Source: an uncultured Candidatus Saccharibacteria bacterium (GTDB taxonomy: Bacteria; Patescibacteriota; Minisyncoccia; Phycocordibacterales; UBA2100). Taken from it: DNA of 64,000 nucleotides. The stretch is from positions 29,725-93,724 of the forward strand of contig CAZHOB010000002.1 of NCBI GenBank assembly GCA_964534465.1, in the 5' to 3' direction. Positions 21,001-36,000 of the stretch are shown one piece after another (position 1 is the first letter of the stretch; the number at the start of each line of letters is the position of its first letter). Made by a program: the position numbers.

Positions 21001-24000
21001 AGGTCCGTCATCAGCGCGATACGCATCTTTTTCATATGCAAAATCAGTATACCCTCGAACAGTAAGAAAAAAAATTGCCCCACGGGTTGCGCGGGGCAAT
21101 AAGTTCGATCTGTATATCTAGAAGATCTCTCTCAAGAGGCGAGCGATGCCCGCGAGTGCGACGCCATCGGCAGATAGCTCGATGGCTTTTTTCCACGGGA
21201 GGAAGCGAAGTTCGCTTTCTCGCTTACTGGCGACCGTATCTTTCAGAGGTTGCCACAGATCATCTGCGATCTCCTCAAGATCTGAGAACGGCACCTCGAG
21301 ACCGTAGAAGTACAGGCCCTGTCCTTTATTAGGATCTTGGACAAAGCATGTGCGATCTGTGTTGACCGGCAAGCCGGGCAACGCCACCGCACGCGTCGAT
21401 TCGAGACCGCCTTCCTCAAGAGATTCCCGGCGTTGTGCTTCAGCAACTGATTCGCCGAGATCAACAGCGCCGCCGAGAGGCCCGAAGATCTTTTCGGGAC
21501 CCATCACTGCACGCCATTCGAGGATCAGACCGATTAGTATTTCCCCGCTCGGTGTTCTGCACCAGGGAATCGTGACCGTTCCGTTTTTTGCGGGCCAGTA
21601 CGCCCAGCCATGGAAACCCTCCGGTCTTTTGCCGAAGGCGAGCTTGCCCCACTCGGCGTGCTCTACCTGAAGAATGCACGGACGGTGTTCTATGCCGTCC
21701 AATGTGATCTTCCAAGTTGATGCCTGAGGTGAGGCGAGCGGCTCGATCTTAAATTCCGACATCGCGCCCTCCTATAGGGTTCGGTTTGAGATCATTTTCT
21801 AAATAAAAATATAACATTTATTATAAAAAATGTCAACGTTCGTGATGTGCGCCGGAGCCGGATTGCCTAAACTTTCACCTCATAGAAATCAGACCCGACG
21901 CTTTGCGCTATCTTTTTTTTCCAAGCGACGCGCTCCTTGCCGATATCGCGCAGCTCCAGAGTGCGGCGGCCCATTTCTTCGAGGCCAAATTCTTTTTCTC
22001 GTCCTTGCCGGATCGCGCCCTCCTTATCCCACACGCGGGCGTTGATGGCTTTCATACCCGAGATCCATTCGTCTTTTACATCGACGCCACCCGCGCGGAA
22101 TGCGTCGAGTACTTTTGTATAGAAAGAAAATTCTTTTTCATAGGCGGCATGATTCTTGTCATTCGGTAAGCGCTCAACCTTCAGAGATGCAATGGTTACT
22201 CGATCAATAGATTCGTGAAGTGGAAGTTTGAGGGGCGTTTTTGACTCCACCTGATCTCCCGTTTCAAAAAAATCGATACCGACCTCGGCTGTGTGCTTGT
22301 CTCTCACAATTGTCCGCGCATCGTTGCAGTCGCGAAGCTTCACTGCAAGGTGGCCAACATCTTCATAGTTGGGAGCAGCGCTTTTTTTGGCAATGCGTAT
22401 ATCAGCCTCGACGTCCCAGATCTTCGCGTTGATCGCTTTCATGTCGGTAAACCACGCGTCTTTTATGGCTATACCGTCTTTTCGGTATCCCTCGAGTACT
22501 TTATTGAAAAATTCGATCTCTCGCTCCACTGATGGGCGATCCGCCTCGTTGATCAAATGTTCCTGCTTCAACTCGAGAATAGTCAGACGATCTATCGCAT
22601 CGAGAAGGGGAACCTTTAATTCCGAATTGACGTAACCCATCGCACCAGTGTACCTCACGCTCTAACTGATTCCTCGGGTCGTCGGATGACCGTCACGCCG
22701 CGCACTTTCACCACCTCGGAGGCGCAATCGTTGGCGAAGCGAATGGATTCGTCGATGTCTCCCGTTTCTGCATATCGCACGACGAGCGCTGCGAAGAAAC
22801 TATCTCCCGCTCCGCTCGAATCCTTCACCTCGATCTCTTTGACCGGATACGTCTTGCCGCGGTAGAGAGCACCGTGCTGCCCGCGCGTGCGGATTATCTT
22901 GCTCTCGAGGCGCTCTCCGATAGGGAGCGAGCGATTGTATTCGTACTCATTTATTTTGATGAAACGCGCCTTACCGAGGAATCCCGAGACGCGCTTTTTG
23001 GTGTCTATAAATACGCACGGATGATTTTCACAGATATGGCGAATATCATCCTCCGAAAGATATCCTTTGTTGTAATCGGATATCGCTATGATATCGTAAT
23101 TTTTGAGCGGGATCTTGCGGACGTTGGCTTTGCCGACGAGGCGGTGATCCACATCGACGCGGAAAAATCCGTGATTGGTGCGGTCGTCCATAAAGCGGGT
23201 CTTGGTTACGTTTTTCCAGTTGTCGTTGGTCACGATCTCACAGTGGGGATAGATAGCCTTCACGTTGCGGTGGAGGTTCATTGCCATGCCAGGATTGTGC
23301 ACTCGACGATGCTCCTGCAGGACCGGCACGGGGATGTCGGGGGCGAGGCGTGTGGTGTCGCAGTAGACGAAGATGTCGCGGCAGCTTTCACCGATCACAA
23401 GGATTTTTTTCTTGTCTTTTTTCATATTAACCGAGCATCTTCACTATTTTTTTACGGATATCTTTCGGCGTGAGCTTGAAGTAAGCAAAGATCTCCTCGG
23501 GTGAGCCGTAGTAGTGGGGGAACTCGCGGGGTACGCCGGCATATTGCACCTCAAGAGGTTTACGGTCTGCAGCTTTCGCGATGTCTGTCGCAAAAGCGCC
23601 GCTGTAGTATGGCTCGCAGACCATCAGCTTATTACCGCGGATATTGCTGCGCAACGTCGCATGGTCGAAGGGCTGGAGCGTCGTGTAATAGAGAATGGTC
23701 ACATCGAGACCCTCGCACGCTTTCACCACAGTATCAAGCATGGGCCCTACGGCAATGACGGTGGCGTTGTTTCCTTTGCGAATGACATTTGCCTTTCCGA
23801 ATTTCACCGTGAGAGAGTCGGCGTTCCGCAAATTGCTCAAACGGAAATAGGTGGGGTGACCGTTGTCATAGGACTGCTTGAAGAGCGAGTCGAATTCAGC
23901 GGGGCTTCCCGGCACAACGACCTCGATCTCCGGCACGTTCTTCAAAATGCTCACGTCGCCCGGGCACTGATGCGTGCAGCCCCACGACGCGAGATCAAAA

Positions 24001-33000: not shown

Positions 33001-36000
33001 GCCGGGATCGCGCTGACGGTAGATACATCCGCACTCACCGCGATCGGCAATGATTACGGTTTTGAAAAGATTTTCAGTCGACAGGTGGAGGCGCTCGGTG
33101 GAATTGGCGATGTGCTCGTCGCATTCTCAACAAGCGGAAAGTCGCCGAATGTTCTCTCTGCCATATCAGCTGCACGAAAAAATAAAATGCGCGTCATAGC
33201 GCTCACAGGAGAAAAGGGTGTCTCTATGCGAAAAATTGCCGACATCGCTATCGTTGTCCCGGCGGGCGAAACCGCACGCATCCAGGAAGTGCATGAGATC
33301 GTCTACCACGCATGGTGCGAAGCCGTGGACGCAGCCCTATTCAATGTATGAGCGGTGATATCATCCATGCTTGCAAGGATTTGGAGCTCTGTTGTGCTAA
33401 GTTTAAGGACAATGAAGGGATCTAATACAGGTACAGCTTTGAAGCAGATCAGGCATGTGGCAGAGATCGCGTGGCATGCCTATGCTCCTTACAGGGGGCA
33501 CATACTGCTCCTGACCGTTTTGAGCTTCATCGGGGGCATCATCGAGGGTGTCGGGATCAATGCCGTGATCCCTCTTCTCTCCCTCGTGCTTGGCATTCAG
33601 AACGCGGCGACAGACACGATCTCCCGCTTACTTAAAATTCTTTTTGCACTGCTCCACATTCCTTTTTTCCCTCGATATTTGCTCGCGCTCATCGTCGCAC
33701 TTTTCTTGTTGAAAGCAGTGGTGTCATTTTGTATTAGCTATGTGCAGATCCGTATCACTTCCGAATATGATCGGTCGATCCGGTCCAGGCTATTCAGTAA
33801 GGTGCTGCGCTCCTCATGGCCGTATTTACTTACGCAAAAGCTCGGCAATATCGAATCGATCCTAATGATCGATGCTCCCATGACGACGAGTTTGCTCGTA
33901 AAAATCAGCGCAATGATAACGCTCGTATCCAATGTCATAATGTATTTCGGTGTAGCACTTTCAATTTCTCCGGTCGTCACGGGAGCCACCTTCTTGGTCG
34001 GCGGTATCACATTTTTGGTAATGCGCCCAGTCGCGTGGCGGGTGCATCACTTCTCAAAAGAGCGCGCGGAATCATACGGTGAAACGCTCCACCATGTATC
34101 AGAGCATGTGAGCGGTCTGAAGAATGTGAAAGCGTTCAATGTGGAAATGCCTGCGATCGAACGGGGAAATCAGTATTTCAATTCAATAACGAGGCTCGGT
34201 ATTCGGATCCAACTGTTACAGCAGATCGCAGCCCAGGTCATACCGCCCGTCGGAGTGATCTACATTGCCGTCATTCTCACTCTCGCATTCAAAACACCCT
34301 TTATCACCCTCGCTGCGCTGCCCGCGATCCTCTATCTCATTTACAGGATCTTTTCCTATGTGCAGCAAATGCAGGTCAACATGCATTCGATGGTTGAATA
34401 TATCCCCCACCTTGAGCGTGCCGTTCAATTTGAGATCAGTACATCTAGTACGCAGGAAAAAACGACCGGCACGCGGCCATTCGCTTTTCAGCGGGAACTT
34501 ACCTTTAATGACGTATCATTCCAGTACGGAACCGGAAAAAAAGTTCTCGATCGCGTCTCATTCTCGATAGCGAAAGGCAGCATGGTCGGGATAGTCGGGC
34601 CTTCCGGCGCAGGCAAAACGACCTGCGTCGATATGATCTTGCGATTGCTGGAGCCGACGGGCGGCGCGATACTGCTCGATGGTGTGCCAAGTACGGAGAC
34701 CTCACTGTCGCAATGGCGCAAAAACATCTCGTATGTATCGCAAGATTTTTTCCTGATACATGGAACGATCAGGGAAAACATTTGCTTTTATGACGAAAGT
34801 ATTACAGATGATGATATTTGGCTCGCGGCAAAACAGGCGCATATCGATGAATTCATTAGCTCATGTCCAGACGGGCTCGATACAGAAGTAGGCGACCGCG
34901 GCGTCAGGCTCTCTGCGGGCCAGCGCCAAAGGATCACGATCGCCCGCGCACTTGCGCGAAAGCCAAAGATCCTTATTTTCGACGAGGCCACAAGCTCGCT
35001 CGACAATGAATCGGAAGCCCATATTAAAGGCGTCATCGACGAACTGAAAGGCAAGGTCACTATTATCGCAATAGCGCATCGACTATCTACGATCTTGCAC
35101 TCCGATCAGCTCATAGTTTTGCAAGAGGGCCGTGTCGTTGAAACTGGGTCGCCCCACAATCTTTTGAGCGATACGAGTTCCTACTTTTACAAAGTCTATA
35201 CGATCAGTCAGTGACGATGTATGAAAATAATGCTTCTGATAAGCGGGAATGAGCAAGTTTCAAAAATCCTGCTTGATGAGATCAAGCAAGCGGGACACGA
35301 GGTCATCTATTGGGTGGCAGATCACAGCATCTCACACCTCACTCCGCAGAGTGCCATATTCCATGATCACTACGACGCATGGGACAGCAAAGGGGCGACT
35401 CATTTTCAAGGCGAGCAGATCCCCCCGGCTTCCGCGGATCTCATTGCGTCGTTTTCCTACATCGAACCGCTGCTCCTCACGATGATGAACAAGCGATACG
35501 ATTCAGCGACAGTCGATGAGCGCAGGCATATCTACTTTACTATGCTGGCATACTGGACCTTTGTCTTTGACAGCCTTGAGATAGACCGTGTCGTTCACGC
35601 ATCCATTCCACACAATGTATACACCAATATAATCTATGAGATCTGCTTGAAGAGAGGGATCCCTTCACTCTGCTTTGAAGAGTCATGGGTAGCGTGCCGA
35701 CTTCTCCCGTTCACGGAAAACTTCTGGCAGGGAAACAGTGAGTTGCGCGCGGCATTGAAGCGGCTTGAAGGAAAAAAAATTACACCCGATGACCTCGGGG
35801 AAGAGCTTCAAGACTATTGGAGAGAGCAGCAGCGCGCGCTGACACCGCCGCCGTACTTGGTGCACCAGAGCCCGCTTGCGGGACGGAGACTCTTCGTGCA
35901 TTACGGTCGGATAGGGATGAGGTCTTTGCAAAAAGGTACACTATTTGTACTCGCCGTGCAGTTCGTGCGCCGCTTCTTCGAGAAAAATCTGAAGGATGAA

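Follow-up and report, generated by a model that had tools for sequence, protein, structure and literature searches.

The 64-kb stretch analysed here (contig CAZHOB010000002.1 of assembly GCA_964534465.1, positions 29,725 to 93,724, from an uncultured Candidatus Saccharibacteria bacterium; hereafter the window) carries genes resembling those for the synthesis and use of activated heptose. They are joined to a cassette encoding a short-chain dehydrogenase/reductase (SDR), a zinc-dependent alcohol dehydrogenase (Zn-ADH), a two-subunit transketolase-like thiamine diphosphate (ThDP) enzyme and a compact HldA-like kinase, and this cassette also occurs in other Patescibacteria and in T4-like cyanophages. 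It is quite probable that the heptose genes provide a nucleotide-heptose pathway of the ADP-L-glycero-beta-D-manno-heptose type. The suggestion that the SDR, Zn-ADH and ThDP enzyme tailor the heptose with a two-carbon (C2) unit is drawn by analogy and carries rather less than even weight. The combination of the two, a nucleoside diphosphate (NDP)-heptose pathway with an SDR-ADH-ThDP add-on for C2 tailoring, is the explanation that we mildly prefer.

Families were assigned by NCBIfam and Pfam profile scans of the open reading frames (ORFs) of the window and by alignments with E. coli K-12 proteins. An earlier reading made from the sequence alone (the sequence-only reading) had described heptose genes, a split transketolase and a Zn-ADH, and all of its ORFs were recovered in the ORF listing with the same coordinates. 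Zinc has been reported in the active site of GmhA, the sedoheptulose-7-phosphate isomerase (PMC11056994). The GmhA of the window (32773..33351, forward strand) has TIGR00441 as its best match and scores just under two cut-offs, with 207.7 bits for TIGR00441 (cut-off 209.45) and 240 bits for PRK13936 (cut-off 276). It is 43% identical to E. coli GmhA; H61/E65 and Q172/H180, which we take to be active-site or zinc residues, are conserved, as is the phosphate-binding loop STSGxS. The HldD-like ADP-heptose 6-epimerase (31765..32649, forward strand) obtained 235 bits with heptose_epim (cut-off 274.6) and 104 bits with GalE, is 34.5% identical to E. coli HldD and conserves S116, Y140xxxK144 and K178. 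The small nucleotidyltransferase (29026..29505, reverse strand, 159 amino acids) is 39% identical to domain II of E. coli HldE, with HPGH as its HxGH motif and a terminal ISTT; rfaE_dom_II gave 116.4 bits (cut-off 181.5) and TagD 38 bits. Among structures, Burkholderia pseudomallei HldC (5x9q, E-value 2e-20) is a far better match than TagD (1coz, 7e-9). The STTR5 motif (F/L)XXGRSTT is linked to promiscuity for CTP and UTP (PMC11573728). The window enzyme ends in RGEKISTT, with Ile instead of Arg, and since the STTR5 motif is thus absent, its sequence gives no positive sign of such promiscuity. GmhA, an HldC-like transferase and an HldD-like epimerase are therefore recognisable as the sequence-only reading proposed.

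The kinase (22655..23425, reverse strand) scores 100 bits with rfaE_dom_I (cut-off 345) and 35 bits with ribokinase. Aligned with E. coli HldE, it keeps the motifs of HldE domain I, namely the catalytic GAGD, SDYxKG, DxK, NxxE and the R(L/I)xP(D/E)xPVPV lid; the GAGD aspartate, NxxE, DxK and SDYxKG are invariant in 25 members of the kinase family. With 256 amino acids it is approximately 60 shorter than HldA (~315), shows deletions of ~26 and ~14 residues relative to HldE domain I and has GM in place of GG. Its best sequence match in the PDB is HldA (4e84). In a neighbour-joining tree the kinase clade is monophyletic and sister to HldA and HldE domain I, apart from E. coli RbsK and PfkB. An AlphaFold2 model (pLDDT 89.8) was compared with the PDB by Foldseek, and the top seven matches were all chains of B. 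cenocepacia HldA. It is thus probable, judging from sequence, that the kinase is a heptose-7-phosphate 1-kinase. HldE is accordingly split in the window, its kinase and transferase being separate genes; the kinase is nevertheless not the generic HldE half that had been described, belonging instead to a conserved SDR-ADH-ThDP-kinase cassette that is shared with cyanophages. Residue-level data on HldA were not found in the searchable literature.

The resemblance could also be generic, the kinase being a ribokinase or fructokinase and the nucleotidyltransferase a TagD-like glycerol-3-phosphate cytidylyltransferase serving a teichoic-acid-type precursor. Every NCBIfam score of the heptose proteins lies under its curated equivalog cut-off, ribokinases follow closely behind HldA in the Foldseek ranking with similar TM-scores, and the ISTT motif presumably occurs in TagD-type enzymes too. 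The profile margins of rfaE_dom_I over ribokinase and of rfaE_dom_II over TagD, the E-values of 5x9q and 1coz, the position of the kinase clade in the tree and the co-occurrence of these genes with GmhA, HldD and a glycosyltransferase of family 9 (GT9) in the window and its relatives all speak against it, and we regard it as scarcely credible. Since every score falls below its cut-off, the heptose proteins of the window are better described as divergent family members.

Searches for the kinase family returned 2289 matches, proteins of approximately 250 amino acids with 56-69% identity among the top matches. A scan of one genome per species yielded 77 loci, numbered here with the prefix L where they have to be told apart. 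Close matches (51-66% identical) occupy 45 of them, which are almost all from Patescibacteria (Kaiserbacteria, Paceibacterota, Taylorbacteria, Nomurabacteria and metagenome-assembled genomes (MAGs) labelled Saccharibacteria); the remaining loci hold canonical HldA or HldE at ~25% identity, from Chlamydiota, Acidobacteriota and archaea. By its sequence, the kinase appears to form a distinct HldA-like PfkB clade restricted almost entirely to Patescibacteria, T4-like cyanophages and viral contigs of IMG/VR.

The neighbourhood of this kinase is largely constant. In the window it is preceded on the reverse strand by a classical SDR (SDR1, 26138..26878, Pfam adh_short), which is the first gene of the cassette, the Zn-ADH (25065..26093, ADH_N and ADH_zinc_N) and the two ThDP subunits. 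Of the 34 bacterial loci whose upstream sequence is long enough, 32 have a Zn-ADH and a ThDP enzyme no more than 6.5 kb from the kinase, usually in the order ADH, ThDP, kinase. Zn-ADH is the most constant partner; it has the catalytic Cys and the His/Glu ligands and lacks the structural-zinc Cys loop, and its family counts thousands of uncultured members with identities of 62-79%. In the window SDR1 precedes ADH, and homologues of it do so in L002, L004, L007, L013 and L020. The ThDP slot is occupied by different enzymes: across 39 related loci it holds an E1 alpha and E1 beta pair in 29-30 and a fused 400-amino-acid E1 in five, and a split transketolase 68-73% identical to that of the window fills it in L002/L010 and L013. 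Two protein types usually lie just upstream of ADH, often on the opposite strand: c4 (~235 amino acids, N-terminal HHLGLGDHI, 19 loci; for instance L046:9133-9840), which also occurs in several viral loci, and c7 (~290 amino acids, 15 loci; for instance L025:5271-6143), with examples ranging from L016 to L046. No Pfam match was found for either and no PDB profile match for c4. L043 (CAMDBB010000002.1, labelled as a Bifidobacterium breve MAG) and L020 (labelled Gammaproteobacteria MAG) also carry the cassette, that of L043 being of the phage type, in which the ThDP gene is fused and both a cupin and a small HAD-like gene are present. Their labels look doubtful, and mis-binning or a prophage is possible.

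The ThDP enzyme of the window consists of a PP or N-terminal subunit (TKN, 24310..25068, reverse strand, Transketolase_N 130 bits) and a subunit with the Pyr and C-terminal domains (TKC, 23427..24305, reverse strand, Transket_pyr and Transketolase_C). TKN matches the split transketolase of Carboxydothermus (6yak) with 206 bits and TKC only reaches 97 bits with 6yaj. E. coli TktA residues H26, H66, H100, D155, N185, E411 and H473 are kept, as is the GDG motif. In contrast, R358 is replaced by F, S385 by a gap or Ala, H461 by G, D469 by W and R520 by N, and the same five positions are likewise replaced in L002 and L090. Going by E. coli and yeast transketolase, we take R358, S385, H461 and R520 to be the sugar-phosphate binders and D469 to read the stereochemistry of the acceptor. 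The family has thousands of members in the Candidate Phyla Radiation (CPR). Two homologues come from outside it: P0359 (56% identical) is present as duplicated TKN-TKC pairs on a 5.5-Mb contig, flanked by genes of the NDP-sugar 4,6-dehydratase and epimerase/reductase families, a cupin, GT10, GT11 and a methyltransferase, and P0317 (58% identical) lies after a Wzt_C gene and before two genes of the GDP_Man_Dehyd family, a methyltransferase, GT2, GT11 and MBOAT. Both clusters are O-antigen-like, and neither locus has the kinase or ADH. Another arrangement is seen in L094, where GT9, ADH, TKN, TKC, a c4-type protein, HldD-like and nucleotidyltransferase genes occur with no kinase within 8 kb; the c4 protein (L094:8888-9586) takes the kinase position after the transketolase pair, and the idea that this 232-amino-acid gene is a degraded kinase was rejected on account of its c4 type.

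These data bear on the role of the two transketolase genes. The sequence-only reading had proposed that they supply sedoheptulose 7-phosphate locally, in which case they would be a dedicated source for the ADP-heptose pathway and the Zn-ADH an incidental neighbour. TKN is a good transketolase homologue with H26, H66, H100, GDG and N185 in place, the genes abut that of the kinase, and central metabolism is reduced in CPR genomes (PMC9166423). The two-subunit enzyme homologous to split transketolase is indeed present; it is not of the pentose-phosphate type, the residues that bind phosphate being gone. Moreover, the slot is mostly filled by E1-type enzymes, the ADH-kinase linkage is as tight as the ThDP-kinase linkage, and transketolase-like homologues occur in NDP-deoxysugar clusters without heptose genes. 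The cassette is also present in cyanophages, whose hosts make sedoheptulose 7-phosphate in the Calvin cycle. Because the phosphate-binding residues are lost and the two non-CPR homologues lie in nucleotide-deoxysugar clusters, local supply seems unlikely, and we give this explanation as a whole a slim chance. The replacement by E1 in the slot and the clusters of P0359 and P0317 argue instead that the enzyme acts on substrates of the nucleotide-sugar type. In this respect, the E1 alpha/beta-like pairs Plm8/9 and AviB1/B2, as well as YerE, are known to equip NDP-4-keto sugars with a two-carbon branch that derives from pyruvate (PMC4802897). No functional study of clusters combining transketolase and heptosyltransferase, or of the heptose genes of cyanophages, was found in the searchable literature.

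The cassette is not confined to cells. By tblastn the kinase was detected in 32 GenBank phage records; its identity to the window protein is 53% in S-SM2 and 49% in P-TIM68, and approximately 37-39% in P-SSM2, P-SSM5 and S-CAM3, all five being T4-like cyanophages. S-SM2 has the order ADH, fused ThDP, hypothetical, kinase, hypothetical, epimerase, nucleotidyltransferase, and P-TIM68 the order SDR, ADH, fused ThDP, kinase, epimerase, nucleotidyltransferase, cupin, small protein, epimerase, glycosyltransferase. P-SSM2, which lacks ADH and ThDP, has the order nucleotidyltransferase, kinase, small protein, cupin, epimerase. Between the proteins of S-SM2 and those of CPR the identity is 49-62%, the window ADH is 54% identical to S-SM2 gp197, and SDR1 is 28% identical to P-TIM68 gp188. 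A scan of IMG/VR gave 113 relatives of the kinase, and genes were counted in the 52 loci that span 15 kb or more. An HldD-like epimerase was present in 36 of these, Zn-ADH in 35, a cupin in 34, the nucleotidyltransferase in 32, a small HAD-like protein in 28 and SDR1 in 25; ThDP enzymes totalled 38, comprising 26 of E1 or fused type and 12 of transketolase type. The order SDR-ADH-ThDP-kinase is collinear across these loci. GmhA, GmhB and GT9 were found in none of the 52. About 12 of the viral loci lack ADH and ThDP genes and, like P-SSM2, join the kinase to the nucleotidyltransferase, epimerase, cupin and small HAD-like gene.

From these arrangements, the system appears to have two parts. In the base pathway, GmhA or a cupin would serve as isomerase and GmhB or the small protein as phosphatase, together with the short kinase, the nucleotidyltransferase and the epimerase. 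The second part is an SDR-ADH-ThDP add-on which, when present, is placed directly upstream of the kinase. Some cyanophage genes are annotated as phosphoheptose isomerase: P-SSM2 gp311 (L084:8716-9060), P-TIM68 gp195 (L087:11278-11616) and S-SM2 gp207 and gp210 (L083:14975-15286 and 16616-16945). They were rejected as GmhA homologues, giving neither an alignment with GmhA nor a Pfam match. The proteins have 103-114 amino acids and show DxDGT and GKP...DD motifs reminiscent of HAD phosphatases. Heptose biosynthetic enzymes have been reported from eukaryotes and viruses as well as from bacteria and archaea, although the viruses showed no phosphatase (PMC11461863, PMC11573728), and the viral enzymes made ADP-heptose in vitro (PMC11461863). 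On the basis of their motifs, the small HAD-like proteins of cyanophages may be the missing viral heptose 7-phosphatase, in which case the neighbouring cupin, annotated as cysteine dioxygenase, may be the isomerase.

A GT9-family glycosyltransferase (30512..31768, forward strand, likely start ATG at 30536) was also proposed by the sequence-only reading, and it holds up: Glyco_transf_9 was matched with 75 bits (gathering score 22) and heptsyl_trn_II with 76 bits (cut-off 134.6). Its donor-side motif is kept, NDSGNPH aligning with DTGLSH of WaaC (WaaC D261). At the position of WaaC Asp13, which we assume to be the N-terminal catalytic Asp of the GD motif, the window protein and those of its syntenic relatives have Ala (EMAAAV in the window, EMGAAV in L082, against SMGDVL in WaaC). 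An N-terminal extension of approximately 45 amino acids with a hydrophobic stretch is shared with L082:4521-5771. The protein is 51-54% identical to the syntenic GT9 of L006, L014 and L044. The GD motif is retained by other GT9 genes of related loci, L002:5272-6552 among them. A host free of lipopolysaccharide (LPS) is plausible, since nearly all of the closest relatives belong to Patescibacteria and the scanned ORFs of the window include neither lpx nor kdtA genes; the acceptor would then be a non-LPS one.

A working model can be built from these parts. GmhA would isomerise sedoheptulose 7-phosphate to heptose 7-phosphate, the short kinase would phosphorylate O1 to give heptose 1,7-bisphosphate, and a 7-phosphatase, encoded elsewhere or non-orthologous, would remove the 7-phosphate. 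The HldC-like enzyme would then form NDP-heptose and the HldD-like enzyme would epimerise C6. SDR1, ADH and the ThDP enzyme might act on a sugar intermediate by oxidation, ThDP-dependent addition of a C2 unit and a final reduction, yielding a branched or chain-extended heptose. Finally, the GT9-like enzyme, with its changed acceptor-side catalytic residue, would place the sugar on a non-LPS acceptor; the adjacent ATP-binding cassette (ABC) exporter would probably flip the product.

Several observations weigh against this model. All five heptose-family scores are below the equivalog cut-offs, as described above, and the lack of LPS in the host is deduced from its relatives. A BLAST search with the GmhB of L002 against all window ORFs of at least 50 amino acids gave no match. 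In L004-L006 a GmhB homologue adjoins GmhA, and in L005 and L006 it separates GmhA from the ABC gene; the window has none there. The HAD protein at 43730..44401 had been named as the only candidate for the GmhB step. It is indeed a generic HAD-IA protein (TIGR02253, 131 bits; HAD-SF-IIIA 35 bits, cut-off 44.6), but its candidacy was rejected: no GmhB signal was obtained, it belongs to another sub-cluster, and the true GmhB of the relatives sits between the ABC exporter and GmhA. This gene ends a head-to-tail series (41093-44401) of ATP-grasp, acetolactate-synthase-like ThDP enzyme and HAD-IA, downstream of NeuB and PseB-like genes, which is a second ThDP module of the window, probably decorating a nonulosonic acid, and is unrelated to the heptose genes. 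Also on the unfavourable side, no enzyme that would form a stable keto sugar for the C2 tailoring was identified, and transketolase-type and E1-type enzymes normally carry different two-carbon units (glycolaldehyde and hydroxyethyl, respectively). The linkage of the kinase to the HldC-like nucleotidyltransferase (11 of the 34 loci by clustering) and to GmhA (about nine related loci) is weaker than that to ADH and ThDP. Lastly, L002 contains, together with the cassette and several GT9 genes, a canonical gmhA-gmhB-hldA-hldC set; because a 314-amino-acid HldA lies near gmhA and gmhB there, the substrate of the short kinase may differ from heptose 7-phosphate.

The last two points give substance to the main rival explanation, in which two pathways are present: the short kinase would act on another sugar, one that ADH and the ThDP enzyme make or remodel, while GmhA, HldD, the nucleotidyltransferase and GT9 would rely on GmhB and a canonical HldA from another part of the genome. 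The coexistence of both sets in L002 (with SDR and a transketolase in its cassette), the contrast between 32 of 34 loci with ADH and ThDP and only about a third with the nucleotidyltransferase, the many Patescibacteria loci having ADH, ThDP and kinase with no GmhA, nucleotidyltransferase or HldD within 10 kb, and the two deletions and the change from GG to GM in the kinase are all in line with this. However, L004-L007 and L044 pair GmhA, GmhB, the nucleotidyltransferase and HldD with the short kinase as the sole PfkB protein within 20 kb, and P-SSM2 and the viral loci lacking ADH and ThDP still join the kinase to heptose-type genes. The kinase is nearest to HldA and HldE domain I in both sequence and fold, and L094, with ADH and transketolase but no kinase, indicates that this pair is not strictly dependent on the kinase. 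On balance, two separate pathways have a fairly small chance of being correct, and a single nucleotide-heptose pathway with the short kinase as its 1-kinase is retained as the preferred explanation.

Compared with the Gram-negative ADP-L-glycero-beta-D-manno-heptose pathway, the window shares the catalytic motifs of GmhA and HldD and the donor-side motif of GT9, and it resembles Burkholderia HldA/HldC in having separate kinase and adenylyltransferase genes. It differs in the shortened kinase, the missing GmhB, the GT9 with an N-terminal extension and no Asp13 equivalent, a host clade that would be LPS-free and the attached SDR-ADH-ThDP cassette, which the classical pathway does not have. The heptose biosynthetic enzymes for NDP-heptoses (Tang et al. 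2024, as described in PMC11573728 and PMC11461863) are similar in their single-domain nucleotidyltransferase, kinase and isomerase, their occurrence in viruses and the absence of a phosphatase in some lineages; the RGEKISTT end sets the window enzyme apart, and the SDR-ADH-ThDP add-on is not mentioned in these two summaries. The closest counterparts are the gene sets of T4-like cyanophages (S-SM2 gp197-203, P-TIM68 gp188-196, P-SSM2 gp309-313). The order SDR, Zn-ADH, ThDP, short kinase, epimerase, small nucleotidyltransferase is that of S-SM2 and P-TIM68, whereas the phages have a fused 400-amino-acid E1-type ThDP enzyme and replace GmhA and GmhB with a cupin and a ~110-amino-acid protein.

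The enzymes of yersiniose (YerE), avilamycin (AviB1/AviB2) and paulomycin (Plm8/Plm9) formation offer a parallel for the add-on, in that a ThDP enzyme stands in a sugar-nucleotide cluster beside oxidoreductases. AviB1/AviB2 and Plm8/Plm9 are E1 alpha/beta-type pairs, as found in the slot of most relatives of the window, and the transketolase-like homologues outside CPR are flanked by NDP-sugar dehydratase and reductase genes. The parallel, drawn from gene context, is limited by the sugar, which would be a heptose and not a 6-deoxyhexose, and by the transketolase type of the window enzyme, a type that normally carries glycolaldehyde and not pyruvate-derived hydroxyethyl. The split transketolase of Carboxydothermus hydrogenoformans (6yak/6yaj) shares the two-subunit build and H26, H66, H100, GDG, N185, E411 and H473. 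Unlike this enzyme and the transketolases of the pentose-phosphate pathway, that of the window has R358, S385, H461, D469 and R520 replaced, scores only 97 bits in TKC and stands in a glycan context and not in central metabolism.

The heptose genes, which had been called dispersed, in fact make up a single block with synteny to loci of other Patescibacteria, from which an origin of the window in this group is inferred as most probable. Read in reverse, its order is ABC-GmhA-HldD-GT9-methyltransferase, nucleotidyltransferase, an insertion with genes of the UDP-glucose dehydrogenase (UGDH) type and a second SDR, and SDR1-ADH-TKN-TKC-kinase-DUF-NUDIX-GT4. The block is collinear with L005, L006, L014 and L044, with protein identities of 51-75%. 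A class I S-adenosylmethionine methyltransferase (29526..30488, forward strand, Methyltransf_23) is the syntenic partner of GT9, with homologues of 64-70% identity at the same place in these four loci. The ABC exporter (33355..35214, forward strand, ABC_membrane and ABC_tran) has its membrane and ATPase domains fused and might be a glycolipid flippase; homologues 55-60% identical lie beside GmhB-GmhA in L005 and L006. Directly downstream of the kinase, a conserved protein (21867..22658, reverse strand), matching DUF6165 and DUF4254 only below threshold, has homologues of 52-59% identity in L004-L006, L008, L011, L014, L038 and L044, mostly downstream of the kinase too. It is followed by a NUDIX hydrolase (21118..21762, reverse strand, NUDIX 23.7 bits), possibly an NDP-sugar pyrophosphatase, for which genes occur at the equivalent position in L006, L008, L011, L014 and L044 and adjoin the kinase and nucleotidyltransferase in L017 and L022. 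The last gene of the block encodes a GT4 glycosyltransferase (19824..21083, reverse strand, Glycos_transf_1 and Glyco_transf_4), with homologues of 54-64% identity at the same block end in L004, L006, L008, L011, L014 and L044. The insertion, at 26719-29021 between the HldC-like gene and the SDR1-ADH cassette, holds an SDR whose domain starts at about residue 63 of the ORF and a gene of the UDP-glucose/GDP-mannose dehydrogenase family; it is absent from the syntenic L005, L006 and L044.

Pfam and NCBIfam scans indicate that the entire window is a glycan island, part of a surface-glycan region that measures 64 kb or more. It includes many GT4 genes, AsnB, a GT-C-like protein with GtrA, ATP-grasp enzymes, many methyltransferases, a carbamoyltransferase-methyltransferase fusion and a nonulosonic-acid set (PseB-like, NeuB, DegT and a CMP-sugar synthetase). 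Searches of the window for a second PfkB, a GmhB or a cupin isomerase gave nothing, and scans for tRNA and Rfam elements were likewise empty. The fusion (6954-9800, 948 amino acids) joins a NodU/CmcH-type carbamoyltransferase to a class I methyltransferase; in P-SSM2, a gene annotated as Nol-like carbamoyltransferase (L084:5802-7604) lies directly upstream of the heptose genes. A UbiA-family prenyltransferase (4560-5879), an SDR epimerase (5911-6948), a PMT_2/GT-C-like protein (14665-16320) and a GtrA-like protein (16313-16786) form a combination that recalls polyprenyl-phosphate-sugar donor pathways, such as that for mycobacterial decaprenyl-phospho-arabinose. The 651-amino-acid ORF at 1564-3519 combines part of a UDP-glucose/GDP-mannose dehydrogenase (the central and part of the NAD domain) with GT4; this could be either a fusion of an unusual kind or an artefact of the reading frame.

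ADP-heptose biosynthesis was already reported in Paceibacteria from pathway annotation (PMC9166423), and heptose biosynthetic enzymes are known across kingdoms. What appears to be new is the compact kinase clade, its near-obligate linkage to Zn-ADH and an interchangeable ThDP enzyme, and the presence of this cassette in both Patescibacteria and cyanomyoviruses, of which no description was found in the searchable literature. Heptose nucleotides serve as LPS precursors and as agonists of the innate immune receptor ALPK1, and their roles outside Gram-negatives are treated as an open question in the literature (PMC11573728). In this context, the window offers a heptose module that looks complete, comes from a clade with LPS-free ultrasmall relatives and is tied to an oxidoreductase/ThDP cassette with thousands of metagenomic members. 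It also cautions that the annotation of a gene as transketolase in a glycan cluster is not to be taken as evidence of central metabolism. The occurrence of the cassette in the cultured cyanophages S-SM2 and P-TIM68 provides an experimentally tractable entry point. As a broader and rather doubtful hypothesis, Patescibacteria and marine cyanomyoviruses might both make an undescribed heptose nucleotide, higher-carbon or C2-branched, by a shared route in which the SDR, Zn-ADH and ThDP enzyme remodel NDP-heptose or a phosphorylated precursor and the compact kinase is specialised for the route; the sugar could then be displayed on LPS-free ultrasmall envelopes and, during infection, on host or virion glycans. 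If C2 addition is true, the cassette would represent a new family of sugar-tailoring transketolase/E1 enzymes and a new bacterial sugar.

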